Of a stretch of 64,000 bases of DNA, positions 2,320-36,372 are shown in pieces. The DNA comes from an uncultured archaeon (GTDB lineage Archaea; Iainarchaeota; Iainarchaeia; Iainarchaeales; GCA-2688035): contig CAYHBD010000042.1 in NCBI GenBank assembly GCA_964354805.1, positions 1-64,000 of the forward strand. Direction: 5' to 3'. The position numbers and the translations under genes were made by a program. Below the pieces are notes generated by a model. The model saw only the letters and a program-made list of their open reading frames with translations. It had not been told where the DNA came from and did no database searches. Positions within the stretch are counted from its first letter, which is position 1; each line of letters starts with the position of its first letter.

Positions 2320-3711
2320 CTAATTTTTGTCTTTTGCGCCTTCCTTTGAATTCTTTGTTAACACGCTTTTGGCCGGCTCTTCCTTGATTTTTTTCATTTT
2401 GACGATTTTTATTTTTTTCAACGGTATGCGCACCCCTTGTTCAAGCGCAACAACAGCCGGCAGGGCAATTGATTCAACCTCCTGCTGCGCTATCAGCTTC
2501 GGCGCCCTGTAAATGATGCTGGCTGATGTAAGGGCGCCAATTTTTTCAACAGTGAACTTTATTGCACTGCCTTTTTCAGCTGCCTGCATTTCAACATCGC
2601 CGGCGATTTCGCTGACAGCCCCGCTGAGGAAAGCAGGTATCTTTGCTATAAGCACAACATTTGCCCAATCCCTGTTGCTGTTGTTTGATACAGCGATTTT
2701 AACAACTGTCTCAAAAGTGGTTTTTTCGCGATCTGCAGTGAAAATGTAGCTCTTGACTGTTTGGATAACAGGCACTGTTGTTGCAACAGCAAACGCGTTT
2801 CTTTTCTCCTCCTCTGAAAAGCCTGCGTCCTCCAATAAACCATTCAGTGCATTGCTGTCAAGCACTCCGCTTGCCTCAGATTCAGCCAGGCAGATACCCT
2901 GCCTTGCTATCGGCTCTTCGGCAATTGACCTCCTTGCCGCAGGCCAGATGAACCTGGCTGCAATCAGGGTTGCCGCAAAAAACAGCAGCAGCAAAGCAGC
3001 GATTGACAGCAGAGGGAAAGCGCTGGGTGGCTCGGCAACTGAAAATTCCCTTGAAATAGTTGCCGTCTTGTCGCCGACAGTTGCGGCAACAACAAGCGAA
3101 TAGCTGCCTGGCTGCAGCATTGGCCCTTTTTTTGAGAAAGCGCCGCTGCCTGTAATTGAGGATTGCTGCGAGTACTGCCATACTACATTGTTGTCCTGCA
3201 ATATTTTTTCTTCAATCGAGATAATCAGCTCATCACTGCTGTTTGATTTTATTTTGTAAGAAAAAGCGATTGGCTCGGCAGGCTTGCCTTCGGTTACATC
3301 CAAGGCATCGAATTCCAGAATAGTCGGCACAGGGGTTACAACCTTGATCGGCTTGCTTGCAATCACTGCAGCGTCATTGCACTGCATTGCAACAAAAAAG
3401 GTCTCAATCCCCTTGGTTCCCTCAGGAACCAGCAGGCTGCCAGACTGTTTTTTTGTTTCAGCGCCTGCAAGAAAAACAGTGTCCTGCCCTGCAATTACTT
3501 TTTCGCTTTCCGTACCAATCCAGTAATCTATTTTGGCGGCGCATTCAGGGCCAACCCTGTTCCCGACATTGAAAGTGAATTCAACTACATTGCCTGCCTC
3601 AGCCTGCCATGAAACGCTTTCAATGCGCACTTCAGCGATGTTCACCGCTATTGCATTCGCTGAAAAAAGCAAAAGGAAAAGCAAAAAACAAATATTCTTC
3701 AACAGCCCCAC
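2320..3711 (-). CDS. Surface/membrane protein, paralog of 699-2216
   Basis: 463 aa; signal peptide, GNRVGPECAAKIDYW, MQCND, TM helix, shared C-terminal domain. Confidence 0.85.
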   Translation of the reverse strand: MGLLKNICFLLFLLLFSANAIAVNIAEVRIESVSWQAEAGNVVEFTFNVGNRVGPECAAKIDYWIGTESEKVIAGQDTVFLAGAETKKQSGSLLVPEGTKGIETFFVAMQCNDAAVIASKPIKVVTPVPTILEFDALDVTEGKPAEPIAFSYKIKSNSSDELIISIEEKILQDNNVVWQYSQQSSITGSGAFSKKGPMLQPGSYSLVVAATVGDKTATISREFSVAEPPSAFPLLSIAALLLLFFAATLIAARFIWPAARRSIAEEPIARQGICLAESEASGVLDSNALNGLLEDAGFSEEEKRNAFAVATTVPVIQTVKSYIFTADREKTTFETVVKIAVSNNSNRDWANVVLIAKIPAFLSGAVSEIAGDVEMQAAEKGSAIKFTVEKIGALTSASIIYRAPKLIAQQEVESIALPAVVALEQGVRIPLKKIKIVKMKKIKEEPAKSVLTKNSKEGAKDKN

Positions 3712-3889: not shown

Positions 3890-6082
3890 TCAGTATTTCC
3901 TTTTCTCCCTGAAAGTTAAAAATAAGACCCATGCAGCCCCGGCTATTGCAAGCAATGCGATCAAATAAGCCGGAGTGCTCGGCAGCGCGAGAATTGACGC
4001 GCCTGTAGCTGTTCTGCGCAAGGAAATGTCTTCCAAAAGCTCTAATTGCTGCTCATCACCTGCCTGCCCAAGCTTTGCTGCAATTATTGCATCTCTCTGC
4101 AGGTACAAAAAGAGCAGGAAAACAATAATCAATGCAATTGCAATCAATGTAATCCAGGCAATCTTTCCCATGCCCGCATTTCTTCTGTGCATGCGGGATT
4201 TGGGTTCCAGCCACAGCCTGTAGAGCAAAAGCAGTTCAACAAGCAGCAGCAGGGCTATCAGTATAGGGATTATTTCAAAAAACGGCAGCAATGCCTCAAT
4301 CTGCGGAATCAGCCAACCGAGTATTGGAACCAATTCAGCCCTCAATTTTTTTTCAAAATCAATGCTGTCCTTTTCAACCTGGTCGCCATAGGCAGCCGCT
4401 ACCTCAAGCCTGTAATTGCCTGGCTCCAATCCGTAAACCTCTTCAAAAAAACGCCTGCTGACTGTTATCAGAACAGTCTGCTTCTTCTGCCAGACAATGC
4501 GGTCATCCTTGAAAATTTTTTCCTCGACAATTATCGGCAAAGTCGCGTCCCTGTTCGAGGAAATATCAAGGGCAAAGGTCACTGGTTGCTCCTCTTCGCC
4601 TGGCAGCAGGGAAGAGGTCTTTAATTCAATTTTTGTTGGGGCACCGACCATTATTGAAATGGTTTTTTTCAGCGTAATTCTCTTCTGGCCTGCCCTCGCC
4701 AAACTGAGGTAAAAGTCATACCTGCCTGACATTTCCTCGGATGAAAGCAATGCCTCGCTTATCTCCCTGCTTTCCCCTGCCAAAAGATAAATTGTTTCAC
4801 TGCCGCTCACCACCTTTTCGCCGCCTTTCTCCAGCCAGTAAGTGATGTAGGCATTGTCATTAACATTTGTGCTGTTTTTTACAACAAAAGTGAAATCAAC
4901 TCTTTCGCCGGCTTCTACCGGATCGTCAATCCTGATAAGATTCAAATCGAAAATGCCCTTTGCAGCAGGGGGAGTAACAGGAGGCGCTGGCGGACCGCCT
5001 CCGCCGCCTCCGCCGCCACCGCCTCCTGGCCCGGGAGTCGGGGTAACTGGGGTAGTGGGAGCAGCATAGTCGGCGCTTGAAATCAGGCTGTTGTTGTCAG
5101 CGTAATCCCTTGCTTTAACATAGTAAGTGTGGTTGGCTGATGCGCTGCCTGAGAAGGTGTAGCTTGCCACAAGCCCTGCCTCAACCCAGCTGCCGCTGTC
5201 CTCCCTGACATAATAGCTTTCAATTCCTGTAAAAGAATCGCTGCCGCTCCAGCTTACAACAACATCGCTGCCGCTGCCGGCTGCACTCACGCTTGCAATC
5301 GTTGGGGCAGTTGCATCATAGTGGATTAAAACGCTCTGCTGGGCTGCGGCTTGCCCGGCATCATTGTTTGCATCAATGCTTAAATTAGTGTCAGCATCAG
5401 CTGCCAAGCCTGTTTCAGTATAGCTGCAGTGGAAATGCCCGCTGAATTCAGTGCAGTGGATGCTGTAATCGAAAACAGCGCTTGCTGCGCCGTTCAGGTC
5501 AACCCTGATGCTTGCACCGTTTATATCATCCGATGTGTTTTTGTTCACGTCAAAGCTTACTGTTATGCTGCCGTTTGTGTTTGTGTCATTTGCCGGAGAG
5601 AAAATCTCTATTTCTGCCACCTCTAAATAGTAGGCGGTTATTTTAGTTCCAGCGCTGGAGCTATTCGAGTCATCGATGCAGAAGGGCGTAACATAATAGG
5701 TTCCCTTGGTTGTCAAATAAGCGGCTATATTTTGTGAAATGATTGCAACATCGCCGGCGACTGTATAAGAAATATTGTTCAAGTCAGCTGTATTCGCGCC
5801 GGTTATTGTTGCATTGGCTTTGTTTAAATCACCTATTCCGTTAGGGTCGGCGCATTGAAAGCCGAGAATTACTGCGCCGCTGCCAGCCCAATTTGAGGGC
5901 GAAACATTCCCATCATTCACTGTTGGAGCAACATTGTTTACTGTCACAACAATGGTTATAAGGGAAGAATTGCTCCCGGGCAAGTAAAACAGCAAAAAAA
6001 TGCAGACAAAAGCAATAGCCTGAATGCTTTTGCCCATGGCAATTAAGTGCAAAAATCGCCCCATCTCACTATGTTTATACAC
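3890..6082 (-). CDS. Surface protein: Ig-like domains, Pro/Thr and poly-Gly linker, Ig pair related to the neighbouring paralogs, three C-terminal TM segments
   Basis: 730-aa ORF (start probably ATG 6037); PTTPVTPTPGPG(G)n linker; DPVEAGERVDFTF...YW...SGSETIYL matches the paralog family. Confidence 0.8.
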   Translation of the reverse strand: MYKHSEMGRFLHLIAMGKSIQAIAFVCIFLLFYLPGSNSSLITIVVTVNNVAPTVNDGNVSPSNWAGSGAVILGFQCADPNGIGDLNKANATITGANTADLNNISYTVAGDVAIISQNIAAYLTTKGTYYVTPFCIDDSNSSSAGTKITAYYLEVAEIEIFSPANDTNTNGSITVSFDVNKNTSDDINGASIRVDLNGAASAVFDYSIHCTEFSGHFHCSYTETGLAADADTNLSIDANNDAGQAAAQQSVLIHYDATAPTIASVSAAGSGSDVVVSWSGSDSFTGIESYYVREDSGSWVEAGLVASYTFSGSASANHTYYVKARDYADNNSLISSADYAAPTTPVTPTPGPGGGGGGGGGGGPPAPPVTPPAAKGIFDLNLIRIDDPVEAGERVDFTFVVKNSTNVNDNAYITYWLEKGGEKVVSGSETIYLLAGESREISEALLSSEEMSGRYDFYLSLARAGQKRITLKKTISIMVGAPTKIELKTSSLLPGEEEQPVTFALDISSNRDATLPIIVEEKIFKDDRIVWQKKQTVLITVSRRFFEEVYGLEPGNYRLEVAAAYGDQVEKDSIDFEKKLRAELVPILGWLIPQIEALLPFFEIIPILIALLLLVELLLLYRLWLEPKSRMHRRNAGMGKIAWITLIAIALIIVFLLFLYLQRDAIIAAKLGQAGDEQQLELLEDISLRRTATGASILALPSTPAYLIALLAIAGAAWVLFLTFREKRKY

Positions 6083-6133
6083 TTAAACTAATTAAATGTT
6101 TTGCGGGCGAATTTTATTTAAATACACGCAATT

Positions 6134-6931
6134 CTACCGCAGCCCGCCCCTCAATCGCTGCTTTGCTGACCTAATATACAGCAAAGAAAAAGCTATTATG
6201 CAAACAGCAACTATGACAGCTACAATTAAAATAAATGACTCGAAAGAAAGCGTTAAGCCGCCTAAAACAAAAAAAGCGCTTTGGCCAACAGGCACTATTT
6301 TTTCTTTTTCCACCACTATCACATTCGGCGCTTCCTTATCCTCGGGGCATTTCCCCTGTTCATCGGCAACCTGGCCGCTCTCGCACAAACGCGGGCATTC
6401 TTCATCCTGCCTCACAACAAAGCCGCCTGGGCAGTCTTTTCTAACCCGCCAAAAAGGCACAGCAGAAAATCGCGGGTCAGCTGAATCGCCGACAGTAATA
6501 TTCATTTTTGCTGTTGAAGCCGACATTATTTTTGTTCCGCCGGCAGAATTAGTCCTGGTTGCCCGAATCAAAAGAACGAACTTGCCAAACTCAACCTTTG
6601 GAATCAGGGTTATGAGAACAGGCGCGCTATCGTTGTCAGAAAGTGCCAGCGTAGCAGGATCAACATTCCAGTCAAATATTTCGTCTAATTCGAAGTCCTT
6701 TTCCTGCAAACTCAATTCAATTGTATAGTAGCCCTGCTCACAGTAGCCGGTTCCAGAACTGCTGTTCAAAACCTTTGTTGTAAAAAAAGCCGGATTGCCT
6801 TTCTGCAGTTTCACATCATCCCACTCAACAGACTGGGTCAAGCCAACACAGCTCAGAGAATAAACAGAGCTGGCAATAAACAAGACAATTAAAAACAGTG
6901 CCAAGAAGCCTAAAAAGCGCATTTCCCCCAT
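6134..6931 (-). CDS. Secreted Ig-like, Cys-rich protein with C-terminal TM anchor
   Basis: 265 aa; N-terminal signal, CPGG..CPRLC..CP motif, hydrophobic C-terminus with basic tail. Confidence 0.75.
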   Translation of the reverse strand: MGEMRFLGFLALFLIVLFIASSVYSLSCVGLTQSVEWDDVKLQKGNPAFFTTKVLNSSSGTGYCEQGYYTIELSLQEKDFELDEIFDWNVDPATLALSDNDSAPVLITLIPKVEFGKFVLLIRATRTNSAGGTKIMSASTAKMNITVGDSADPRFSAVPFWRVRKDCPGGFVVRQDEECPRLCESGQVADEQGKCPEDKEAPNVIVVEKEKIVPVGQSAFFVLGGLTLSFESFILIVAVIVAVCIIAFSLLYIRSAKQRLRGGLR

Positions 6932-7267
6932 TACCCCTTACCTTAATCCTTTCTGAAAAAATTTATATATTGTATTGTTATAGCAAAAAGCCTAATAATT
7001 GAACATTGAATTGCTTTTTGCATATAGCAAACTGCAATAAAAAATTCAAAAATATAGGCAGTTCGCTATAGCTTGAAAAACAGCCCCAACCCGTGTTTTA
7101 GGGGCTGCTTGCTTGAAATAGCAGCCGGAAGCCAAAAAAACTGCTTTTCACAGAATCAACCAAGGCCAACGATTTTTTTGTAAAACGGCACCCTGCTGCT
7201 ACAGGGGGCGTTGGATTAAAACCATGAAAAGCACAAGGATACAACTTTGCTAATGCAACAATTCATC

Positions 7268-7370
7268 CAACACTTTGAACAATGAAATAATTTATTTTCT
7301 TAGTTCAAAGTGTTGCCAACACTTTGCCAATTGAAATAAACAAATTTATTTTTCTTTTGGCAAAGTGTTG
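7268..7370. repeat. Two tandem related hairpins (13- and 14-bp inverted repeats)
   Basis: caacactttgaac/gttcaaagtgttg (7268-7315) and caacactttgccaa/ttggcaaagtgttg (7317-7370) with similar AT-rich loops. Confidence 0.8.
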
Positions 7371-7447
7371 TCACGCTGTTAAAACAATGATGCGTTCTTG
7401 CTGCAAAGTTGTAAAATAAAAGCAAAAAAAAGCGCTTTTTTGCAGAG

Positions 7448-8365
7448 TTAAACAGTCTCGACTTGGTCGTAGGCAATGTTTCCGTCATAGGCGCCTGATT
7501 GCTGCAGATTGGGGATATCCAACCAAAGATACAAATTAAAATAATTGCTGTCAGGATAAATGCCCCTGTGGAAAGAGGACGTAACAGTATTAGCGTCGAC
7601 AGTGAAAGGAATGCTGAGGGTAGGATTATTAGAGAGATACCAGCTCTGGTTAACATCCTTAATTATATACCGTATATCAAAAGAAGTGTAAGGAAGCGCA
7701 TTGAAATCACTGCCCTTGCAGGTAACATTCAAATCAACATTGCCGTTATTGGTAGTTTTAATATAAGCATTAACAGTACTGGCATTATCAAAAGGATTAT
7801 TAGTGGAATTAGGGTCGCCGCTGTAAGTGCCGCTGCTTGTATCCTCACTCCTGTTAAGAACCTTGCTCAACATCAAAGCATTCCTGTCAACAGCGTTCAT
7901 GTCATACCTGCCGGTGTTATCATCAACAGCAACATAAATATTCACATCGCCCCACAAAAACTTGTCCTTCCAGGCAGCAGCAGGGATCTTAATGCAATAA
8001 ACATTGCCGCCCTGGGTGCAGCCATTGCTGGTTCCCAGGCTCAAATTATCATCCTTATTCTTCAAATACATGCTGTTGTGATCCCAATCCTCTGCCGTAG
8101 AATTCAAATCAGTGTAACTAAAAATAGTGACCCTGAAACTCTGCGTGTTAATATCACTAGCGCCATTCGGATCAGTAACAGTAACCTCCAAAGTAAAAAG
8201 CTGAGTACCAGTAAAACTCTTATTAACAGCACAAGTGCCGTCACAAATCCTAATGCTTCCAATAGTCGGGGCAACGCCGCCAACAGTTGCACTGATTGTG
8301 ACAAGCGCGCTAATCAAAGGGGCAGTCACTGTTGCAACTATTGCAAAAACAACTAAAGTGAGCAA
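7448..8365 (-). CDS. Secreted D-x-N-rich protein, near-duplicate of the C-terminal ~270 aa of 8694-10910
   Basis: 305 aa; long identical peptide blocks shared with the neighbour (e.g. DLNSTAEDWDHNSMYL, KFLWGDVNIYVAVDDN); start may be ATT at 8398. Confidence 0.85.
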   Translation of the reverse strand: MLTLVVFAIVATVTAPLISALVTISATVGGVAPTIGSIRICDGTCAVNKSFTGTQLFTLEVTVTDPNGASDINTQSFRVTIFSYTDLNSTAEDWDHNSMYLKNKDDNLSLGTSNGCTQGGNVYCIKIPAAAWKDKFLWGDVNIYVAVDDNTGRYDMNAVDRNALMLSKVLNRSEDTSSGTYSGDPNSTNNPFDNASTVNAYIKTTNNGNVDLNVTCKGSDFNALPYTSFDIRYIIKDVNQSWYLSNNPTLSIPFTVDANTVTSSFHRGIYPDSNYFNLYLWLDIPNLQQSGAYDGNIAYDQVETV

Positions 8366-8693
8366 TGCTTTATCAGCAAAAAAACCTTTTTCCGTAATTT
8401 AACCCCCAAACCATTTGCAAATTGTTGTAAATATTATTGCTTTAGTATTTATATATTTTTCCTTAAGCGGTTTTTGACCTGCCGCATGCCATATTGCATG
8501 TTTTTTGAGCCTGTTGCAGGCCACATTGCACAACAATAGGCAATTGTTATACCATGCAATCCCCAGCTTTTTTAAAAGAACAATGGTTTAATTGAATTTT
8601 TTTATTTCCGGCGATTTCCCAAAGAATTCAAAAAAAAAATTCTTTTGATTAAAGCCCGGACAGCACACGCATTGCCTGCTTCCAAAAAAAGCA

Positions 8694-10910
8694 TTAAGCC
8701 TGTTCGCTTTGATCATAAAAAAGGTTGGCATCATAGCTGCCTGCCGGCTGCAGGTTAGGCATATCCAGCCAAAGATACAACCAAAAAGTATTGCTGTCAG
8801 GATAAATGCCCCTGTGGAAAGAGGGTGCAATAGTATCAGTGCCGCCGGTGAAAGGAGTGCTGCCGGCAGCATTATCAGAGAGATGCCAGCTCTGGTTGCC
8901 ATCACCAATCATATACTGCATATTAAAAGATTCGTAAGGAAGCGCATTGAAATCACTGCCCTTGCCAGTAACACTCAAACTCACATTGCCGTTATTAGTA
9001 GTGACAATGTACGCATTGGGAGTACTGGCATTATCAAAAGCATTATCAGTGGTATTAGAGGTGCCGCTGTAAGTGCCGCTGCTTGTATCCTCGCTTCTGG
9101 TAATAATCTTGCTTAAGGTCAGGGCATTTCGGTCAACAGCATTCATGTCATAGGCGCCTATGTTATCATCAACAGCAACATAAATATTCACATCGCCCCA
9201 CAAAAACTTATTGCTCCAAGCGGCATTAGGCACCTTAATGCAATACACGTTTCCGCTCTGAACACAGCCATCGCTCGTTCCCAGGCTCAAATTGTCATCA
9301 GCCTTATTCAAATACATGCTATTGTGGTCCCAATCCTCTGCTGTAGAATTCAAATCACCGTAAGTAAAAACAGTGACCCTAAAACTCTGCGTGTTAACAT
9401 CACTAGCGCCATTCGGATCAGTAACAGTAACCTCCAAAGTAAAAGCCTGGGCAGCAGAAAAACTCTTAGTAATATCACAAGTGCCGTCACAAATCCTAAT
9501 ACCTGCAACAGTGGGTGGCGAATTTTCAAAGCCGTAAATGCATCCGAGCTCTGACGCATAAGTGCTTGAAGTGCCCCTGCCAACATAGCCCTGCTCTACT
9601 GAAACCCTTGTTTGGAAAGAAGTGCTGCTTGTAGTGCCCCCGGCATAAGGAAAGCAGAACTTGTTCTGGTCAATGTTGAAGTTTGATGCAGGGGGCTCGC
9701 CCTGCGGCGTATAACTTACAGCCATGTTCCATAAGTGCCCGAATATTCCCTTGTCAGAATCGCCTGTTCTGATTGGGTTCCATTGCTGTTTGTTTGTATC
9801 AAAGTTTGCCCTGTATTGAAAGTAGCGGTTGTTTGCTGCGCTTAAATTGCAGGCGCTTGCAGTGCATGCCCTCAAGCCGGTTGTCCAGCTTTCGCTATCG
9901 CAGGCAGCGTCATCGCATGAACGGTAATCCACTACCACATTATTATTCACATCTGCCAGTTGCTGCCATTGAATGTTGTCCCATTGGACTGTTGCACCGG
10001 CATCTTTGATTGGCGAATTATAGTTGCTGTTCATCCAGGAATTGTAGTCTGCATAGATTTCTGCTGCACTTAAGGCTCTGTTGTAGATTTTTATTTCGTC
10101 AATATAACCGCTATAGTCATAAGATGCGCTGGCATAACCTCTTCCAAATTTAAGAGTGGCGTTATTGATTTCTGGTTTTCTTGTTTCTTCAAGGGGCGTG
10201 CCGTTTACGTTTCCATCAACATAAATAGTTATGGTGCTTCCGTCTAATGTTGTGGCAATATGCTGCCACTTATTGGCAACAAGCGCATTGTTAGCGGTGA
10301 AAGCTGTAATAATGTTATTTCCGTCTCCCACAACAACTCTTAATCTGTTATTTGTGCTTGTTATCATGTCAAAACTTTCGGTAGTTACACCGCCACCGTC
10401 TGCTCTGCTGATAATTCCTTGATTGGTTGCGGTTGAAAGCGGGTAAATCCATGCTGAAACGGTTAATACGCCTGAATTAAAATCCTGCTGCAGGCTCGCT
10501 GTGCTTAAAATATTGACGTAAGTATTGCTGGCAGCAGCAAAATAGCCCGCATTGCTATCCCACATTCCCCAGGCGTTGATGTCAGCGCCGTTTATAAGCA
10601 ATCCCCAGTTATTGCGGTTTGTGTCATCCCTTATTCCATTGCCTGTTGAATTCACATCGTCAAACTTCCAGTAGCCAACAAGGTTTTGGTCGTAGAATGC
10701 TTGGTCTAAATCATTATGCTTCCTGTCATCTCCAACAGGCATAATGTTTCCATCCCAAGTAACCTTTGTCCAGTTGAAATCAAAGCTTGCTCCTGTATTG
10801 TAATCGCTCGCTGCTGTTGACTGCCATGTTGCTGCTTGAATGTTTAGGGAAATTAAAATCAATATTAATAAAATCAGCGAAAACAGCAGTGCTTTTTTTT
10901 TAATTAGCAT
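8694..10910 (-). CDS. Secreted LamG (concanavalin-like) domain surface protein
   Basis: Signal peptide; LVGYWKFD...TVSAWIYP...WQHIATT...IYVDG...GYIDEIKIYNRALS is the LamG-like signature. Confidence 0.88.
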   Translation of the reverse strand: MLIKKKALLFSLILLILILISLNIQAATWQSTAASDYNTGASFDFNWTKVTWDGNIMPVGDDRKHNDLDQAFYDQNLVGYWKFDDVNSTGNGIRDDTNRNNWGLLINGADINAWGMWDSNAGYFAAASNTYVNILSTASLQQDFNSGVLTVSAWIYPLSTATNQGIISRADGGGVTTESFDMITSTNNRLRVVVGDGNNIITAFTANNALVANKWQHIATTLDGSTITIYVDGNVNGTPLEETRKPEINNATLKFGRGYASASYDYSGYIDEIKIYNRALSAAEIYADYNSWMNSNYNSPIKDAGATVQWDNIQWQQLADVNNNVVVDYRSCDDAACDSESWTTGLRACTASACNLSAANNRYFQYRANFDTNKQQWNPIRTGDSDKGIFGHLWNMAVSYTPQGEPPASNFNIDQNKFCFPYAGGTTSSTSFQTRVSVEQGYVGRGTSSTYASELGCIYGFENSPPTVAGIRICDGTCDITKSFSAAQAFTLEVTVTDPNGASDVNTQSFRVTVFTYGDLNSTAEDWDHNSMYLNKADDNLSLGTSDGCVQSGNVYCIKVPNAAWSNKFLWGDVNIYVAVDDNIGAYDMNAVDRNALTLSKIITRSEDTSSGTYSGTSNTTDNAFDNASTPNAYIVTTNNGNVSLSVTGKGSDFNALPYESFNMQYMIGDGNQSWHLSDNAAGSTPFTGGTDTIAPSFHRGIYPDSNTFWLYLWLDMPNLQPAGSYDANLFYDQSEQA

Positions 10911-11063
10911 TTAATCACCCTGAAACCACAATCCCTTTGCTGCAAAACAGCAATTCAAGCATTTTTAGCTATTAGAATTAACCACCAAAAGAAATAAAAG
11001 AAATAGAAGTATTCAATTATTGCTTGAAATACTTAAATGAATGCATACCCTTTTGCGCTGCCC

Positions 11064-11402
11064 TTATTGCTGCTGCTGTTGCAGGCAGATCGGCAGGCCA
11101 TAAACATTGCCCTGCGCGTCCTGCTGCCAGTAAACGCTGCTCCGCAAGCCCATGCCCTCGCAGAACCTGCTCAGGACAATGCTTGCCATAATGTCCTCCC
11201 TGTTCAGGTCAGCTGTTGTGAGATAGCCTGTCCCAATGCCCCGATTGTCCAGGTCTGCGCTTGTAAGATAGCCCATTGGCGCATTGCCTGAAATGTTTGC
11301 CGGCGCAACCATGCTTAATGTGTAGCCTATCGCAATTCCGATCAGGGCAATCGCAAAAACCCTTGCAATTCTCTTGCCTTCCATGTTGATTTCAATCTTC
11401 AC
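11064..11402 (-). CDS. Small membrane-anchored hypothetical protein
   Basis: 112 aa, N-terminal TM, internal GYLTxADL repeat, GGGGG SD-like motif upstream. Confidence 0.65.
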   Translation of the reverse strand: MKIEINMEGKRIARVFAIALIGIAIGYTLSMVAPANISGNAPMGYLTSADLDNRGIGTGYLTTADLNREDIMASIVLSRFCEGMGLRSSVYWQQDAQGNVYGLPICLQQQQQ

Positions 11403-11691
11403 CCAAAAAACCCCCTAATTTTTTTATTGCATTCCTGCAATTAATTGCTTATTAATTTTTCCTGCGCTTGTTTTTATTAAGCTTTCTTTTTTCTTTGATT
11501 CAGCTGCCAAAATTATTTTTACAAATAAGCAGCCCAAATAAAAACCATTAAATTGCTGCAGAATTGCCATAAAAAAAATAAGAAAAGAAAGAAAAGCTGC
11601 GAATTAATAAAAGGCAAATGCTACACCAAATTGCAACAAAATATATAAAATGTTACGTTTTAGTGTAACAAATTAATCCCGCCTCCAACTA

Positions 11692-11872
11692 TCAGCAGCC
11701 GGAAACGAAAGCCGAGGAATTGAAACATTTGCCGCTGCCCGCAATCCAATGCCGACTACCAAAAACTACAGCCCGACAATCGCCTCTGTCAGAAATCTAC
11801 CCCTCAGCTTCCAAACACGAAAGCTGTGCCATTATAGTCAATGTACATCTCGCAGCTGTTCGAAGGGAAACA
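11692..11872 (-). repeat. Diverged ~180-bp direct repeat of the 3' end and downstream region of the giant gene (partner 13385-13562)
   Basis: 11804-11872 encodes CFPSNSCEMYIDYNGTAFVFGS*, the same peptide as 13494-13562, with 8 third-position differences. Confidence 0.92.
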
Positions 11873-12047
11873 AAACGTATTCTGCCGCAAGCAAAGGCAG
11901 CAACTGCCAATGGCGCCAATGGCAAAAAAATTTTTTGAACCAGTGCTGCTGCCGGCAGTTTCCACGGCAATCCTCGTTTTTTAGCAAAAATTAAGCTAAC
12001 AGCGGATAACGAAAAGTTTAAATATTGGTTATCTATAAATAACTAAT

Positions 12048-13316
12048 ATGTTGACTTTGGATAAACTGGGTGAAATGAATGGCTGGTGGAAGATCGGCAC
12101 GGTTAGGAAACAGCTTGCCCCGCCCTTCAGGAGAAAGTTATTTTTTGAAACAAGAAAATACGTTAAACTAAGGCAGATAACAGCCATTGTTGGGTTAAGG
12201 CGAACAGGCAAAACAACTTTGTTTTTTCAACTTATAGAGGACTTGATTAAAAGTGGCGTTAATTCAAGCAGCATCTTGTATTTTTCTTTTGATGAAAGAG
12301 TTGAAGAATTGAGGGAGTTGATAAATCTTTACCAGGAGAACATACTTAAAAAAGATATTGGGGGGAAAAAAATTTACGTTTTTTTAGACGAAATCCAAAA
12401 GTTAAAAGATTGGCAAAACAAAATTAAAATATATTACGATTTATACCCAAACATTAAATTTTTTGTTTCTGGTTCAGCTTCGCTAAATATTTTGGTTGAC
12501 GCAAAAGAGAGTCTAGCTGGCAGGATCTTCTATTTTAATCTCGGTGTCCTTTCATTTGCCGAGTTTTTGCAGCTAAGAGGAAAAGACATCAAAAAGATTA
12601 AAGAAAACGTTGACCTGTGGAAACATGAACTCAGGGTGGAACTAAACGATTTTTTGCTAAAACCGTTCCCGGAAATTATTAATGCAAACGACGAGATAGC
12701 AAAAAAATACATAAAAGAAAGCGTAATAGAAAAAGCGATATTCAGGGATTTAAGCAGTTTGTTTGAAATTAAAGATATTGAACTCATAGAAAAACTCATT
12801 TACATTTTAGCATCAAATCCCGGCATGATAGTCAATCTTGACGATTTGTCAAAAGATTTGGGCAGAAGCAGGCAAGTGATAAGCAACTATCTTTATTATT
12901 TGCAGCATTGTTTTATTTTAAACGCTTTAAGAAACTTCAGGGGCTCCTTTAAAGCGTCTTCAAGAAAATTAAAAAGATATTACCTAAGCCACCCTTGCCT
13001 TGCGCTGGCCCTAGCCTCCCCTGAGCAAGGAAAAACAATGGAGAACCTTGTCCAATTCGCCATTAAAGCGGATCACTTCTGGAGAGAACAAAACAAAGAA
13101 GTCGATTTCATAGTAACAGAAGACAAAAAAATTACGCCAATTGAAGTTAAATACGCCGCAAAAGTTAGAATGAAAGATGTTAAAAACCTCGTAAAATTCA
13201 TGCAAGAGCATAAAATTAAGAAAGGCATTGTTATCACTGAAGACTTCGACGCAGTCCAGAGACACAAAAATAAAATAATAAAATTTGTGCCCATGTGGAA
13301 ATGGCTGCTAACTTGA
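12048..13316 (+). CDS. AAA+ superfamily ATPase (AAA_14 + DUF4143 / PD-(D/E)xK-like C-terminus)
   Basis: Walker A GLRRTGKT, Walker B FLDEIQ, SGS motif, C-terminal EVDF...PIEVK; AT-richer than flanks. Confidence 0.9.
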   Translation: MLTLDKLGEMNGWWKIGTVRKQLAPPFRRKLFFETRKYVKLRQITAIVGLRRTGKTTLFFQLIEDLIKSGVNSSSILYFSFDERVEELRELINLYQENILKKDIGGKKIYVFLDEIQKLKDWQNKIKIYYDLYPNIKFFVSGSASLNILVDAKESLAGRIFYFNLGVLSFAEFLQLRGKDIKKIKENVDLWKHELRVELNDFLLKPFPEIINANDEIAKKYIKESVIEKAIFRDLSSLFEIKDIELIEKLIYILASNPGMIVNLDDLSKDLGRSRQVISNYLYYLQHCFILNALRNFRGSFKASSRKLKRYYLSHPCLALALASPEQGKTMENLVQFAIKADHFWREQNKEVDFIVTEDKKITPIEVKYAAKVRMKDVKNLVKFMQEHKIKKGIVITEDFDAVQRHKNKIIKFVPMWKWLLT

Positions 13317-13493
13317 CTCACAATGTTTGACTGAGGGCAAGCCAATTTAACGCGCCAAAAATCCAATGACGTTATCGTTTGCCATCAGCCCCTGAAAAGG
13401 AAAGCCGCGCAGTTGAAGCATTTATCGCTGCCCGCAATCCAATGTCGACTACCAAAAACTACAGCCCCAACCGCTTCTGCCAGAAATCTGCCT

Positions 13494-16400
13494 TCAGCTC
13501 CCGAAAACGAAAGCCGTTCCGTTGTAGTCAATGTACATCTCGCAGCTGTTCGAAGGGAAGCAAAGCCTGTTCACATCACTCTGAATACTCACGCCCCTAT
13601 TGACTCCAATTGAAACATTGACATCGCTGGCAATCTGCAGAGATGGGCTGCCTAACAGCGTTCCAGTGATTGACGCGTTTCTCATTACGTTTAGGTCTCT
13701 TGCAACATTAACATCCCTGCTCAACACAACACTGTAAGGAGTCTCATTAATGGCATTATAACCAATAGCAACAGAACCAACACCAATAGCAGCAAGATTC
13801 ACATCACTATAACCCAAAGCAATTGAATAATCGCCAATCGCAAAAGGACCCTTGCCCCCTGCTCCGTAGCCACCTGCAATTGCCCCTTGACCAGCAGCCC
13901 TTGAATAATAACCCAAAGCAGCGCTATAAGCTCCACTTGCAATTGTACTATAGCCCATTGCAATGCTATAGGCACTACTTGCAGTTGTAATATAGCCCAT
14001 TGCAACACCATAATTCCCACTTGCAATTGTATTATAGCCCATTGCGACACTGCCCTGTCCACTTGCAGTTGACTCCCAACCTAAAGCAGCGCTATAGTCC
14101 CCAAACGCTGTTGTTCCATGACCCAAAGCAACCGCGTTTACACCATAAGCGCTGTTTGCGTCCTTGGAAACAAACCTAACGCCATTGATACGCATGGCAT
14201 TCAAATCAGAAGCCTTCAAAGCGAAAGAACCCAAATTCACATCATAGTCAGCGCCGATGTAAGGAACAAAAGCAGCATTCACATCAGACTGACTTGGAAT
14301 GCCAGTTAGAGCTGCACCACTACCAAAGAAAGCAACAGCACTAACAGACCTAGCATTCAAATCCCTAAAATTCAAATTCACATCATAATCAGCACCAATG
14401 TAAGGAACAAAAGCAGCATTAACATCTGTTTGAGTTGGAATGCCAGTCAAACCAGCACCAGAACCAAAGAATGCCACTGCACTAATCGACCTCGCATTCA
14501 AATCATGGAAATTCAAATTCACATCATAATCAGCCCCAATATAAGGAACAAAATGATTGTTGACGTCCAACTTCCCATAGAAATTATTATTCAAATCCAC
14601 CTTACCATAAAAGTGAGCGTTAACATCAGTCTTCTTGTAATAGAAAGTGTTTAAGTCAATCAAGCTCTCAAAATGCCTATTCACATCCAACTTACCATAA
14701 AAATTAGCATTAATATCAGCCTGAGTAGGAATACCAGTCAAAGAAGCACCAGAACCAAAGTATCTTGTTGCGGTAACGCTTGCCAGATTGCTATCGCTTG
14801 TTGCACTTAAAGTTGCTGTTGTAACCGCCCCGGCTGATGTGTTAAAGCTGCCGGTGCCGGTTGAAAGGCTTGTGCCTCCTAAGTCAATTAAGTCTGAGCT
14901 GTCAGTAATTGAACCACTCCCAAGGCTCAGTGTTCCCAAAAATATATTTTCAGCACTAACAGACCTAGCATTCAAATCCCTAAAATTCAAATTCACATCA
15001 TAGTCCGCACCAACATAAGGAACAAACTGGTTATTCACATCCAGCTTGCCGTAAAAGTTGGCATTAATATCTGTTTGAGTAGGAATACCAGTCAAAGAAG
15101 CACCAGAACCAAAGAATGCCACTGCACTAATCGACCTAGCATTCAAATCCCTAAAATTCAAATTCACATCATAGTCCCCACCAACATAAGGAACAAAGTG
15201 AGCATTCACATCCAACTTACCATACCAACCAGCATTAACATCAAGCTTGCCATAAAAGCCAGCATTGACATCAGTTTTCTTGTAATAGAAAGTGTTTAAG
15301 TCAATCAAGCTCTCAAAATGCCTATTAACATCCAACTTACCATAAAAGTTCGCGTTAATATCAGTCTGAGTAGGAATACCAGTCAAAGAAGCACCAGAAC
15401 CAAAGAAACGAACAGCACTTATAGACCTAGCATTCAAATCCCTAAAATTCAAATTCACATCATAATCAGCCCCAACATACGGAACAAAAGCAGCATTAAT
15501 ATCAGTCTGACTTGGAATGCCAGTCAAACCAGCACCGCTGCCAAAATATTGCCTTGCATACAAGGCATTGAAATTGCTGTCAGAACTGAAAGACTTGATT
15601 CCATAAATCCCCAAATTCATGTCCTTTGTTGCACCAATGTATGGAACAAAGTGCGCGTTAACATCCAGCTTTCCATAGAAATTTGCATTCAAATCCACTT
15701 TGCCATAAAAGTGTGCGTTGACATCCGCTGCCTTGTAGTAGAAAGCATTCAGGTCTGCTATGCTGTGGTACCATTTGTTGAAGTCGTTGAAGCCCATGAA
15801 AGCATTCAAGTCAATGCCCATTGTTTTTCGTGAAACAAATGCGCTGCCGATCGAGCTGAACCTGATTAAAGGCGTTTGCTCCTCTCCGTTGACATACATT
15901 CCAAGCCAGGTGTTTGCATTGAAGTCAAGGCTGCTCAGCCAGCGCTGCTTGTTCAGGTCGCCCAAAACAACGCTAAAAATTCCATTGCTGACATTCACTA
16001 CCCTGGTTTCGCTCCACAGGATGTTCTTGGCTGCTTCATTTGAATCGTACAGAATGAAGTTAAAAGTGTAGTCGCCGCTTAAAGCGCTGCCGCTGCCGTC
16101 GGTAAGCCTTCCCTGCACAGTGAACAGCTCCGGAATAGCTGCCACAAGAGGTGAAAACGCAACCATGGCAAGAGCGAGCGCAATAAGCAAAGGCATTGTT
16201 CTGTTAAATGAAAAAAGGTTTTGACTTATACATAACATAGCTTTGTTTGTTCTGGAATTGCAGCCGCTTTTCTCCCCTGATTCGGATGCCTCCGTTTTGG
16301 TTTGGCTTCTTGCAACCACCCTTTCATTTACTGTTTTCTTCAGTTGGGAGATTGCGCCCAATATTCTCTTGATTGCATCCTCAGCCATGTTTCTTTCACC

Positions 16401-19400
16401 TCCAATGGCTTTTTTTGTCCTTAATGCAATTAATAAGATTGCATAAGCGAAAATGAAGCAGGCAAACGGCAATAGGTTCAGCTGCGTTTCTGCACTGCCT
16501 TTCCCGGCCTGTTTTGGGCTGGCAGCAAACAATGCTGCAAGCCCTGCCTGGTTTGCCTGCTTTTGCATTGCAATTTTTTCAACAAAGAACTGTTTTCTCT
16601 TTTCCGGGTGCACAATATAATAGCCCTCTGCCCCAAACTCCAATGTGCTGTAATCCAGGGGAGCATCGAATTGCAAATAATGCTCTTCCCCCTGCCGCAT
16701 TACCAGGTATTTATCGTCTGATTTTGCAAGAATGCTTTTGTCAGCGTAGCTTGCGCTGTCCAATTCAATTATTTTGTCATTGCTGCCGTCAGCCCTCAGG
16801 AAAACCCTGTCCAGATAGGTTGTTTCATCCAATTCCTCTGTTATTTTCAATTTTATTTTCCCTTCAACTGATACCTGCGTTGAGCTTATGTTTGTGAATG
16901 AGGTGTACTCTTTTTCTTTTGCCGCTGCGCCGGCAATGAAGTCCGAAACAAAAAAGTATTCTCCCTCTTTCAAAATGTAAATGAACGGCGATGCCCCTGT
17001 TTTGTGAATTATTACTTTTCCACCTTTTTCTAAAATTAATGAGCCTCCCGGATTCAATTGCGTGTAAGGATTTATTTTTTCTATTATAATTTTTTTCGCT
17101 GAAGGAACAGCAAGCGTTCCTGTACTAGTAATTGTAAGTTGGCCATTTGAAATGTGTAGATCGCCCGCATTCAGGCTGCATGTTGTTGAAAGAGTGCAGG
17201 CGCTGCCGTCTCCGATGTTCCAGTTTCCCGACGCAGGGCAATCGCAGGTTGTTGGCATTACTCCTGTCGGATTCACGTGGAAGCTGTTGTCGCTTGCGTC
17301 AAACTTGCTGTTGCCAGCAGTGTCTCTAACCAAAATGTTTGCAAAATAGTTGTTGTCACCAATTCCTGAAATATTCCAGTCATAGCTGCACTTTCTCATG
17401 TTGATTACCCCGAAATTATAGTCCAGGGAAATCTGCGATGCAGTTAAAGCACTTGCCAAATATACTTTTACTTCCTCAATGAGTCCTTTGAAGTAAAGGT
17501 TGGCTGCACTGCAAGCGCCAGGATTGTAACCTATTGCAAAAGGCTCGGCTGTGCTAGTGCCACCTGCCCAGGAAAAGCTTGAGGGGGTATCTAGCTTTCC
17601 ATTTATGTATATTGTGTATGCCCCGCTGCCGTTGTATGCAACAGCAAAGTGATACCATACATTTGAGCTCAAAGTACTGCTTGAAGCTACAAAGTTGCCA
17701 TACTCGCCATCATAGACCTTTAAGGCACTTGAATTTATTTGAATGCTTATTCCAGTGTTAGAGGTGTCATTGCACGCGTGATCCAAAATCGTTCCGTTTA
17801 ATGTAATATCATCTGCTTTAAACCAGCCCATCCAGGTGTAGGTGTAAGTGTCAATAAAATTTAAACTATTGCGTCCGCAATTGATAAAGTTATTCACTCC
17901 ATTAAACCATGCCGCATTTGTGTCCCATTTTCCTTGGGCATTGTTGTCTGCGCCGTTAATGTATTGCCCGTGGTTGCGCTGTCCGCTGTAATCAAATGCC
18001 CTTATTGTATTGACGTCATCTTCTTGGGCATCGAATTTCCAATAGCCATAAATGCTCGTAGTTTTGCCCAGATTTGTCACGCACCTGTTTCCATCAACGT
18101 CTAAATTTGTCCTTATCGCTGTCCCGCTTCCCTGCGTACTTGTAGTGCTGTAATTGATGTCGGCATAGTGTATGCCGTAATTAACGTCGCCTGTTGCAAC
18201 ATTGAAGTCAATCGTTAAATTGCCGTCAACGGAATAAGAGTAGGAAGGCATTGCAAAGCCAACATCGTGTCCATCAACATTCCAGACGTTTACATCGGGC
18301 ACAGTGTTATCAACAGCAAAGCTCTTCTGCGTTGTCACAGTATTAGAATCAACGCCGTCTTTTATCTCAATCGTAACCCAATAATTGTTGTCGGCTATGC
18401 CTGAAATATTCCAGTCCCATTGGCACACCATCCCTGTTTTTGCATTTGTATCACAGCTGCCAAAGCCAGCATTCGTGCTCAAATTGACGTCATTGATTAT
18501 TCTCGTTGTCTTTGCATTCGCGCTTGCCCCATACCACATATTAAAATTCAAATCATTGCTCTCATTATCATCAACCCTAAATTTTATCGCCAGATTCCCG
18601 TCTTTTACATAGCTGAATGCAGGCAGTGCTGCATTCAAATCCCAGTTGTCCACTTTCCAGATGTTTGCATCCGGAGCCCTGTTTACAATGACCCTGAAGC
18701 TTTTTTGCGTTGTTGCAGTGTTTGAGTCAGTTCCATCGTTGACTTCAATCGTAACCCAATAGTTGTTGTCAACAACAAACTGCCTGTGGATGTTGAAGTC
18801 CCATCGGCACACCATCCCTGTCGTTTTGCTGTTTGTATCGCATGCCCCCTTGATTGTGTTTGTGCTTAAATTTACGTCCCCAATTATTTTGTTCGTTTTA
18901 GCGTTTGCGCTCGTGCCATACCACATATTAAAATTCAGGTCTTGCGTGCCATCAAGATCACTAGTTCTAAACTTTATTGTAAGGTTCCCATCTGTTTCAT
19001 ATTTGAACTTTGGCAGTGCTGCGTTGAAGTCTCTATTGTCCACTTTCCAGATATTAACATCAGGCACATTGTTTGCCGGTCCAGCAGGAGGATTCACCCT
19101 GAAGCTCTTCTGCGTTGTCACAGTGTTTGTATCGCTGCCGTCGTTTATTTCAACCGTAACCCAGTAATTGTTGTCGGAAACACCGGAAATATTAAAATCC
19201 CAGTTGCAAACCATCCCACTCTTGCTGTTTGTGTCGCATGCCCCCTTGCTTGTGTTTGTGCTTAAATTTACGTCTCCAATTATTTTGTTTGTTTTACTGT
19301 TTGCGCTTATGCCATACCACATGTTGAAGTTCAAATCATCATTGTCCTGGTCTGTTGCCCTGAACTTGATTGTAAGGTTTCCGTCAGATGCATAAGTGAA

Positions 19401-34731: not shown

Positions 34732-36372
34732 TTACATCTCCATGTCTCCCATTCCGCCTGGAGGCATTCCGCCCATTGGCGGACCCTTGCTTTTGCTGTT
34801 CCCTGCAATAATGTCATCAATGCGCAGAATCATTTCCGCAACCTCTGTTCCGCTGGTGATTGCCTGCAGCTTCACTGACAATGGCTCAATAACATTTGCT
34901 GCACGCATATCAGAAAGCTTCTGCTTGAATACGTCAACTCCAATGTATTTGCCTTCCTTTGCCTTGTGCCTTGCCCTAAGGTTAACGATTGTTTCAAGCG
35001 GGTCCATTCCTGCTGTTTCAGCCAAGGTCCTTGGAATTTCCTCCAGGGTTTCTGCAAAGGCGTCAATTGCCAACTGCTCCTTGCCTCCGATGGTTTGAGC
35101 ATATTCGCGCAGCCTTACTGCCACTTCAGCCTCAATGCTGCCTCCGCCTGCCACAATCTTTCCGTCCTTAAGCACGTCAGCAACACTCATTAGGCCGTCG
35201 TGCACTGCTCTTTCAACTTCGTCAATAACATGCTCCGAGCCTCCCCTTATCAGCAGTGAAACGCTTTTCGGGTTTTTGCATCCTTCCACAAAAACCATTT
35301 CATCGCCTGCAATCTTTCTTTCTTCAACCAGGGCAGCTTTTCCAAGGTCGCTTGCGCTCAAATCATTTATTCTTGAAACAACCTTTCCCTTTGTTGCCCT
35401 TGCCAATGCCTCCATGTCTGACTGCTTTACTCTTCTTACTGCAGCAATTCCTTCTTTTGCAAGGAAGTGCTGTGCCAGGTCATCAATTCCTTTCTGGCAT
35501 ACAACAAAATTTGCTCCGGATTGCTTTATTTTTTCAACCATCTTGCGCAGCATTGCTTCCTCCTGGTCAACGAATGCCTGCATTTGGTCCGGGCTTGTTA
35601 TCTCAATCTTTGCGTCTGTCTCTGGCTCTTTTATCTCTAAAGCAGAATCAATCAAGGCAATTTTTGCCTCTTTCACTCTTTTCGGCATTCCGCTGTGGAC
35701 AATCTCCTTGTCAATTATTATCCCCTGGACAAGCTTGCTTTCGCCCAATGCTGCCCCCTGCTTTTTCTCAACCTTTACATTGTCAATATCAACGATGGTT
35801 TTTCCTTCAACCTCTTCGGCAACAGCGTTGATTGCATTCACAACCAGGTCAACAAGCGCTTCAGCTGATTCAGCGACCTTTCCAGTCATTGTTGTCAGGG
35901 CAATGTTGCGTAGCATCTTGCTGTCGTTTTTTTCAATTGAATCAGCAGTATTGTTCAAAATCTCTTTTGCCTTTTTTGCAGCCTCCCTGTAGCCCTTGAT
36001 TATAATGCTTGGGTGAATCTCGTCATCCAGCATTTTTTCAGCATTCTTAAGCAATGTGCCTGATATTATAACAGCTGTTGTTGTTCCATCGCCAACCTCT
36101 TCATCCTGCGTTTTTGCAACTTCAACCATCATTTTTCCTGCGGGGTGGTCAATGCTCATTTCCCCCAGAATTGTTGCGCCATCGTTGCTTATTGTAACAT
36201 CCCCAAGCTCGTCAACAATCATTTTGTCCATTCCCTTTGGCCCAAGAGTGCTCTTTACCGCGTTTGCAACCGCCTTTGCAATCAGAATGTTTATTCTCTG
36301 GGCGTCCCTGCCCCTGGTCCTCTTTGTCCCTTCGGACAAAAACATAATTGGTTGTTGTGATGCGTCAGCCAT
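34732..36372 (-). CDS. ths: Thermosome subunit (group II chaperonin)
   Basis: [33 protein letters not shown] tail. Confidence 0.98.

Follow-up and report, generated by a model that had tools for sequence, protein, structure and literature searches.

The window analyzed here is a stretch of 64,000 nucleotides from an uncultured archaeon of the Iainarchaeota (contig CAYHBD010000042.1, positions 1 to 64,000, assembly GCA_964354805.1), and the element in question is the motif D-x-N, an Asp followed two residues later by an Asn, in the surface proteins that it encodes. Four open reading frames (ORFs) on the minus strand between positions 3890 and 23912 encode exported or membrane-anchored proteins which together contain 180 copies of D-x-N, each protein carrying 4.5 to 6.8 times the number expected. 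Expected numbers were derived from amino acid composition, and z scores from 2000 shuffles ranged from 8 to 22 over the four ORFs. Ser or Thr occupied the second position after the Asn in only 31 of the 180 copies, as described in an earlier note on this DNA which had stated that most copies lack these residues. Two cytoplasmic proteins encoded in the window served as controls. The thermosome (34732-36372, Cpn60_TCP1) contained no D-x-N with 1.2 expected, and a class I aminoacyl-tRNA synthetase (28499-31420) contained one with 1.5 expected; the earlier note had described such proteins as having almost none.

The 730-residue membrane-anchored surface protein (3890..6082) contains 13 D-x-N with 1.9 expected. 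Twelve of these lie in its N-terminal immunoglobulin (Ig)-like half (residues 1-365), for which about 10 had been estimated by hand, and one is found in the Glu/Lys-rich membrane-near domain and transmembrane (TM) region. A Gly13/Pro-rich linker (residues 330-370) lies between the motif-rich half and the motif-poor Glu/Lys-rich domain, and the C-terminus contains three TM segments. The exported protein of 305 residues (p305; 7448..8365) consists of two Ig-like beta-sandwiches and contains 16 D-x-N with 2.7 expected; exact recounting agreed with the earlier figure of 16 of its 26 Asp having Asn at +2. Standing alone as a protein, it is paralogous (73% identity) to the double Ig-like module at the C-terminus of the neighboring 738-residue exported LamG (Laminin_G_3) protein (8694..10910), in which 28 D-x-N were counted, matching the approximate figure given before, with 6.2 expected.

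The fourth ORF (13494..23912) is a giant surface ORF of 3472 residues with 123 D-x-N, where roughly 100 or more had been estimated and 24.2 are expected (z 22). The motif occurs in three settings: a 10-residue fiber repeat, tandem Ig-like modules of about 125 residues, and scattered single sites. Two tandem Ig-like modules (20493..21275, residues ~880-1140) carry about 9 D-x-N each. Four further tandem modules of ~125 residues (18123..19565, residues ~1450-1930) carry about 9 conserved copies each, most of which directly precede stretches of alternating hydrophobic residues. The LamG domain (17427..17858, residues 2019-2162) has a core without D-x-N. In the fiber region (14193..16055, residues ~2620-3240) the motif is itself part of the repeat D-[VL]-N-A-x-F-Y-G-K-[LV], and the region also has a longer unit with three D-x-N. 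Neither the repeat nor the longer unit matched a Pfam family, and PHROGs yielded no more than weak matches of low complexity. Downstream of the fiber region, at the C-terminal end of the ORF, lie YadA-head/Hep_Hag-like repeats (13713..14165), here in an archaeon. TM segments are predicted near residues 35, 2480, and 2575, with a predicted cytoplasmic loop of ~85 residues between the last two that is free of D-x-N. At residues ~2477-2590 a basic stretch follows the first of the two internal hydrophobic segments, and the second resembles a fresh signal peptide. Either the giant ORF encodes a single protein whose two outside domains are connected by this loop, or it consists of two in-frame genes without an intervening stop. 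Between the adhesin genes, an AAA_14/DUF4143 ATPase gene (12048-13316) lies on the plus strand, with a weak Mrr_cat-like restriction-endonuclease match near the C-terminus of its product.

D-x-N across the genome

The 1.38-Mb assembly (88.5% complete) was scanned using crude ORF calls, which were split by hydrophobic segments into 857 cytoplasmic ORFs and 214 ORFs termed exported, the latter being defined by a hydrophobic N-terminus. Cytoplasmic ORFs contained 382 D-x-N with 388 expected (0.98), and exported ORFs contained 676 with 307.9 expected, an excess which withstands correction for composition. Within the exported set D-x-N was the top outlier among all 400 X-x-Y pairs, with a z score of 21 compared to 7.5 for the next pair. 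The excess was specific to the one-residue gap. E-x-N was observed 240 times with 300 expected and N-x-D 273 times with 307 expected. Approximately 20 rich proteins (21,278 residues) contained 481 copies with 106 expected, and 30% of their Asn residues had Asp at -2; the exported class minus these proteins was at 213 observed to 207 expected (1.03). The earlier statement that exported proteins are saturated with D-x-N thus holds for the rich proteins and not for the remainder. Avoidance of the motif in the other exported proteins was considered and rejected on the same overall ratio, mild deficits being found in some families only. In the rich proteins the observed to expected ratios of related pairs were 0.79 for N-x-D, 0.92 for D-x-D, 0.66 for E-x-N, 0.83 for D-x-S, and 0.79 for D-x-T, and N-x-N and S/T-x-N were also below 1.

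The rich proteins are repetitive and rich in Asn, Ser, and Thr, with about 50 of the 123 copies in the giant ORF lying in near-identical fiber repeats, features which favor an artefact of amino acid composition, local composition, repeat amplification, or DNA-level bias. However, shuffling of the rich proteins within blocks of 10, 20, or 40 residues gave only 122-130 +/- 10 copies, little above the 106 expected from global composition and far from the 481 observed, and the reverse and related pairs were at or below expectation. When a single 60-residue fragment was kept per BLAST cluster, 291 D-x-N remained compared to 77 expected, and in fragments that lacked any BLAST match to the rest there were 249 compared to 67.5. 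Codon usage for Asp and Asn was identical within the motif and outside it, and cytoplasmic proteins of the same genome showed no excess. All four of these causes, with DNA-level bias judged by codons, were ruled out by the shuffles, the fragment collapse, and the codon comparison, and we regard an artefact of any such kind as highly improbable. These data confirm that the 4-5 fold over-representation of D-x-N is a directional protein-level signal with specificity for Asp as well as Asn.

As had been claimed for the window, the motif is found on unrelated folds. Pfam families matched by the rich proteins were LamG, DUF2341, YadA head, MG2, PQQ propeller, beta-helix/NosD, CARDB, PKD, LVIVD, VWA, CarboxypepD_reg, FixG_C, Big_7, and sortilin/BNR, and the set also includes Ig-like modules, fiber repeats, and a main surface protein of ~1000 residues that is S-layer-like. 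Within the Pfam-matched stretches of these proteins 24 D-x-N were counted with 8.6 expected.

With respect to the classical sequon, N-x-S/T was not enriched in the exported proteins (observed to expected ratio 1.09), and only 2 of the 214 proteins reached p<0.01. The giant ORF contained 52 N-x-S/T with 53.3 expected, and 28 orthologues of the main surface protein contained 350 with 315 expected (1.11). The possibility that D-x-N replaces N-x-S/T at the same Asn was not supported by the alignment, as 18 of 123 sites having N-x-S/T only fell on D-x-N columns compared to 106 of 437 plain Asn. P0275, a distant member of the p305 family, was rich in N-x-S/T (15 with 6.1 expected) and had only 4 D-x-N, its relatives showing the reverse; in this single anecdote one surface Asn context may have been exchanged for the other.

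Distribution and conservation in Iainarchaeota

Thirteen homologues of the 738-residue LamG protein (38-70% identity) all showed an excess of D-x-N (215 with 61 expected). In contrast, 106 distant LamG homologues, the named ones including bacteria of the candidate phyla radiation (CPR), contained 349 with 373 expected and none was individually significant. Judged by these homologues, D-x-N is a lineage trait that does not travel with the LamG fold, homologous domains outside the lineage being without it. The p305 family was small, with 47 clusters among 1.84 billion representatives searched, and an alignment of 29 members contained 251 D-x-N with 64 expected. These were spread over 65 columns, four of which were common to 15-27 members, a dozen to 5-11, and the rest to one to three; at the level of aligned sequences the sites are shown to turn over while density is maintained.

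A second set was assembled from single-copy orthologues of the main surface protein in 28 Iainarchaeota genomes spanning more than 12 families (median identity 36%). This set contained 320 D-x-N with 136 expected, compared to 105 N-x-D. Nine D-x-N columns were common to at least 14 sequences, and seven control pairs gave no such column. Motif Asn was better conserved than other Asn (0.55 versus 0.31 in the surface protein and 0.79 versus 0.34 in the LamG family), and its exchange for Asp was rarer than that of other Asn. The Asp of the motif was likewise more conserved than other Asp in the 28 orthologues, with Asn, Thr, and Ser, and not Glu, as its common replacements. Two mutually exclusive pairs of neighboring sites in this alignment had suggested a sliding of sites; this was set aside, as such pairs could stem from jitter in the alignment and from common ancestry.

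Conservation of this kind bears on the foremost rival to enzymatic recognition, namely that D-x-N is an unmodified structural motif in which Asp(i) and Asn(i+2) stand at the loop-to-strand boundary of beta-sandwich and fiber modules, with selection acting on folding or mechanics and no enzyme reading the sequence. The pair could cap strands by hydrogen bonds, or bind cations or water at the domain poles, and would thereby make both the tandem-domain adhesins and the surface lattice stiffer. Nine sites fixed over 28 such divergent orthologues, with Asp and Asn both extra conserved, are in keeping with this role, as is the replacement of Asp by residues of the Asx/ST type, which would reflect a limit on geometry. 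On the other hand, the rarity of Asn to Asp exchange argues against ligand sites at which the two are interchangeable, and the heavy turnover of sites in the p305 family at maintained density does not favor a fixed structural role. The weak point of the structural explanation is that LamG homologues outside the lineage manage without the motif, and we know of no precedent for a general structural solution confined to one phylum.

Both rich and poor surface proteins were found among the sampled relatives. LamG-bearing giants were rich (3-4.4 times expectation) in eight genomes (G100, G032, G119, G108, G047, G030, G011, and G053) and not rich (0.2-1.1 times) in five (G133, G131, G125, G072, and G010). 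The orthologue of the main surface protein was still rich in G010, which has a poor LamG giant, and in G004, where the exported sample was not enriched. Richness as a property of whole genomes was rejected, since rich and poor surface proteins coexist in the present genome (G000) and in G009 and G038. Taken over the alignments, the D-x-N trait extends through the order, is old and under purifying selection, and is confined to one protein class.

Local sequence and structural setting

At position -1 of the motif in the rich proteins, between Asp and Asn, Val, Met, Leu, and Ala were favored and Lys was nearly absent (2 with 22 expected, 0.09). At +1, Ala was doubled and Asp, Pro, His, Gln, and Asn were depleted. 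Pro was depleted at -1, +1, +2, and +3 (0.46, 0.31, 0.46, and 0.46) but present, as in the D-P-N at residues 65 and 184 of the 305-residue protein. Hydrophobic residues made up 0.60 and 0.57 of positions -1 and +1 compared to a background of 0.42. This suggests an extended segment that exposes Asp and Asn together on one side. Ser or Thr at +2 was only weakly associated with the motif, being found in 106 of 481 copies (22%) compared to 17% of other Asn (odds ratio 1.38).

The earlier note had offered Ca2+ binding or selection for Asx-turns as its alternative, and the flanking residues fit neither pattern. No signature of Ca2+ loops (DxDxDG, EF-hand-like, or cadherin DxNDN) was present around the motif, as Asp was depleted at +1 (0.29) and +2 (0.49), Gly was not enriched, and D-x-D was not over-represented. 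Type I beta-turns and Asx-turns prefer Pro, Glu, Lys, or Ser at i+1 and Gly at i+3; here i+1 was occupied by Val, Met, Leu, or Ala and i+3 by Ala, Cys, Tyr, Val, or Ile, without Gly, and Lys and Pro were among the residues depleted at i+1. Both absences count against the structural explanation. Tandem Ig-like adhesins are known to carry Ca2+-binding linker motifs, such as DxNDN and DxD in cadherins and those of RTX and Big-domain adhesins, and these resemble D-x-N as short Asp/Asn-rich motifs at the poles of tandem beta-sandwich adhesin domains. They differ in several respects: the +1 position of D-x-N is poor in Asp and Asn, no excess of D-x-D is found, Glu is excluded, about nine copies occur per domain, and the motif is also found in fiber repeats.

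An AlphaFold model of the 305-residue protein (pLDDT 89) showed two Ig-like sandwiches, and Foldseek searches with this model returned only generic Ig-like pairs. Nine of the 16 motif Asn lay within -3 to +1 of a strand start, compared to a background of 30% and to 5 of 16 other Asn (p = 0.027). This placement supports the structural explanation, as do the integration of the motif into the 10-residue fiber repeat and its position before nearly every strand in the Ig-like modules. The preference is nevertheless a tendency, and in a second model (N-terminus of the LamG family) of low confidence (pLDDT 59) only 3 of 8 motif Asn were at strand starts. No solved homologues of the motif-bearing modules were found; the only matches were to YadA-head repeats and, weakly, to an Ig domain of a glycoside hydrolase. 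The structural explanation is also favored by differences in richness between domains of one polypeptide, as in the 730-residue protein with its motifs gathered in the N-terminal half, by the extreme density of the motif, and by its restriction to one protein class. We consider it a serious contender, although with a probability well short of even.

Candidate enzymes and standing of the interpretations

Any enzymatic reading of the motif directs attention to the oligosaccharyltransferase (OST) AglB, a member of the STT3 family. A single copy is present in this genome, outside the window (contig C39, L001:781-2874, minus strand; PF02516, 70.3 bits with a cut-off of 24.5), with a weak AglB_core-like C-terminal domain (25.2 bits with a cut-off of 27). 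AglB was present in 40 of 41 relatives, and those homologues that carry names are annotated as Candidatus Diapherotrites. The TIXE/SVSE motif of external loop 5 is represented by S-V-G-E-E and is conserved in relatives. The earlier note had suggested inspecting AglB for altered WWDxG and DK motifs, and the former was altered: in a HMMER alignment to human and yeast STT3 the WWDYG position reads WWNNG. The DK/MI motif, DxxKxxx(M/I), is intact (D-F-S-K-F-V-I), and its Lys position varies between K, R, L, E, and I in relatives. Among 120 lineage homologues the WWDYG Asp was replaced by Asn or Ser in 19 (16%), and a Gly stands in its place in two sampled genomes, G032 and G108, where the sequence is WWGEG. 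Such variation is unusual in a motif which is described as conserved in evolution. The pocket that binds Ser/Thr is formed by the Trp-Trp-Asp of WWDYG and by the DK/MI motif (PMC3703281, PMC8342417). In 115 of the 120 homologues a Lys follows the SVGE motif by 11 residues, which is only a lead as a counterpart of Arg331 of PglB. When the WWD variant was considered as the determinant of D-x-N enrichment it was rejected, as no co-variation of the two was seen over 16 or more genomes.

Besides AglB, the genome encodes four membrane glycosyltransferases of the PMT_2 (GT-C) type (C8:35559-35999, C43:20582-21025, C34:8169-8630, and C43:4388-4855), a large number for a 1.4-Mb genome. A search of the genome (88.5% complete) for the glycosyltransferase families known from adhesins, GT41 (HMW1C-like) and GT9 (AAH/TibC-like), gave no members, and no gene conserved next to the D-x-N-rich genes was seen, these lying on at least 11 contigs. 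Such results bear on a further explanation, in which D-x-N is read by something else: an enzyme making a different modification of Asn or Asp, a factor for maturation or sorting of adhesins, or a binding partner on the host surface or among the lectin-like domains of the organism itself. Enrichment specific to one protein class per genome, a situation known from bacterial adhesins with modifying enzymes of their own, is in keeping with this, and so are the four GT-C enzymes and the lack of correlation between AglB variants and D-x-N richness. The absence of a conserved neighbor gene and of the two adhesin glycosyltransferase families points the other way; no candidate partner was identified. 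We consider a different reader of this type unlikely.

Known systems offer several points of comparison. The PglB sequon of Campylobacter, D/E-x-N-x-S/T, shares with D-x-N an acidic residue at -2, Asn at 0, Pro disfavored beside the Asn, Ala favored at +1, and occurrence on exported proteins of many folds. PglB, however, accepts Asp or Glu, whereas here only Asp is enriched (4.5 times) and E-x-N is depleted. Its sequon requires Ser or Thr at +2, which about 22% of the present copies have, and PglB is bacterial, whereas the OST here is an archaeal AglB of the DK type. With respect to the AglB/STT3 sequon N-x-S/T of archaea and eukaryotes, the enzyme family is the same and is present in single copy, but N-x-S/T is not enriched here, the enriched determinant lies on the opposite side of the Asn, and the Asp of the WWD pocket is replaced in this genome as well as in a minority of lineage homologues. 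The general O-glycosylation sequon of Bacteroidota, D-(S/T)-(A/I/L/V/M/T), is likewise a lineage-specific sequence of three residues with Asp first and shows a 2-4 fold excess on exported proteins of many folds, but its acceptor is Ser or Thr and not Asn, and spacing and domain of life also differ. Hyper-glycosylated bacterial adhesins are served by dedicated cytoplasmic transferases (HMW1/HMW1C, AIDA-I/AAH, and TibA/TibC), soluble enzymes of GT41 or GT9 that act on N-x-S/T or on Ser in repeats. As in the present case, dozens of sites occur in repetitive fiber or beta-helix adhesins and within one protein class; here the modification is putative and the transferase families were not found.

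The explanation that we rank first is that D-x-N is a signal for enzymatic modification of Asn, most likely by N-glycosylation keyed on Asp at -2, and we hold it tentatively, with a probability somewhat below even. An extracytoplasmic enzyme of Iainarchaeota would read D-x-N as a short linear signal on unfolded or exposed surface proteins and modify the Asn. N-glycosylation would be the most likely chemistry, with Asp at -2 taking the place of Ser/Thr at +2 as the main acceptor determinant, and transfer would be carried out by the single AglB or by one of the four other GT-C enzymes. That the Asn is modified, that the adduct is a glycan, and which enzyme acts are all three inferred. The pattern resembles those by which glycosylation sequons have been recognized elsewhere, being directional, specific for the two residues, limited to the surface, present on unrelated folds, missing from homologues of other lineages, and conserved yet gained and lost within families. 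Further points in its favor are the conservation of motif Asn as Asn, the depletion of Pro around it and the doubling of Ala at +1, the weak association with Ser/Thr at +2, and the lack of an N-x-S/T excess in exported proteins. Enzymatic modification of Asn is placed ahead of the structural or cation-binding explanation, then of another enzyme or partner, and lastly of an artefact, because of this sequon-like pattern and the apparently decaying Ser/Thr pocket of AglB.

A number of observations weigh against this explanation. To our knowledge no OST that is independent of Ser/Thr at +2 has been characterized. AglB keeps WWD in 84% of lineage homologues and a few conserved N-x-S/T columns exist in the surface-protein alignment, and for these two reasons AglB probably still reads Ser/Thr. 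D-x-N-rich giants co-occur with AglB reading WWDEG, WWDQG, WWDNG, or WWGEG, and poor giants with WWDEG, WWNQG, or WWDYG. Enrichment is confined to one class of about 20 surface proteins and does not extend to exported proteins generally. Four envelope-operon giants of ~2500 residues contained 21 D-x-N with 30 expected, a family of secreted enzymes with a shared dockerin-like C-terminal tail contained 26 with 39 expected, and two exported proteins contained none with 3.4 and 3.6 expected. Motif density is extreme, with one copy per 10-residue fiber repeat and about 9 per Ig module of 125 residues. Many sites are fixed at a median identity of 36%, which also suits a structural role, and the strand-start placement in the model of the 305-residue protein belongs with these points. 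The suggestion of the earlier note that a divergent OST modifies Asn in a D-x-N context therefore stands in part: the statistical signature, the WWNNG of AglB, and the poor fit of the Ca2+-loop and Asx-turn patterns are in its favor, while the lack of co-variation of the variant, the retention of WWD in most homologues, the limitation to one protein class, and the strong conservation and density of many sites are not, and glycosylation is a plausible interpretation of the signal.

No publication describing a D-x-N motif, or a sequon of such kind, emerged from the literature search. In its most specific form, which we advance with more reserve, enzymatic modification would mean that Iainarchaeota, and perhaps other DPANN archaea, N-glycosylate D-x-N without Ser/Thr at +2. 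This would be a third kind of N-glycosylation sequon, used by an AglB with a decaying Ser/Thr pocket or by another GT-C enzyme and placing up to one glycan per 10 residues on fibers and on the S-layer-like protein. If this is true, the determinant at -2 and the repeated loss of the pocket Asp would indicate that acceptor recognition in the AglB/STT3 enzyme family can be re-wired, and D-x-N might provide a new orthogonal tag for glyco-engineering. If the motif is structural, it would represent an unusual design rule for beta-sandwich and fiber proteins that is limited to one phylum. D-x-N also marks the host-facing protein set of these archaea, comprising fibers, adhesins, and the main surface protein, and thereby offers a simple sequence rule for metagenome mining.

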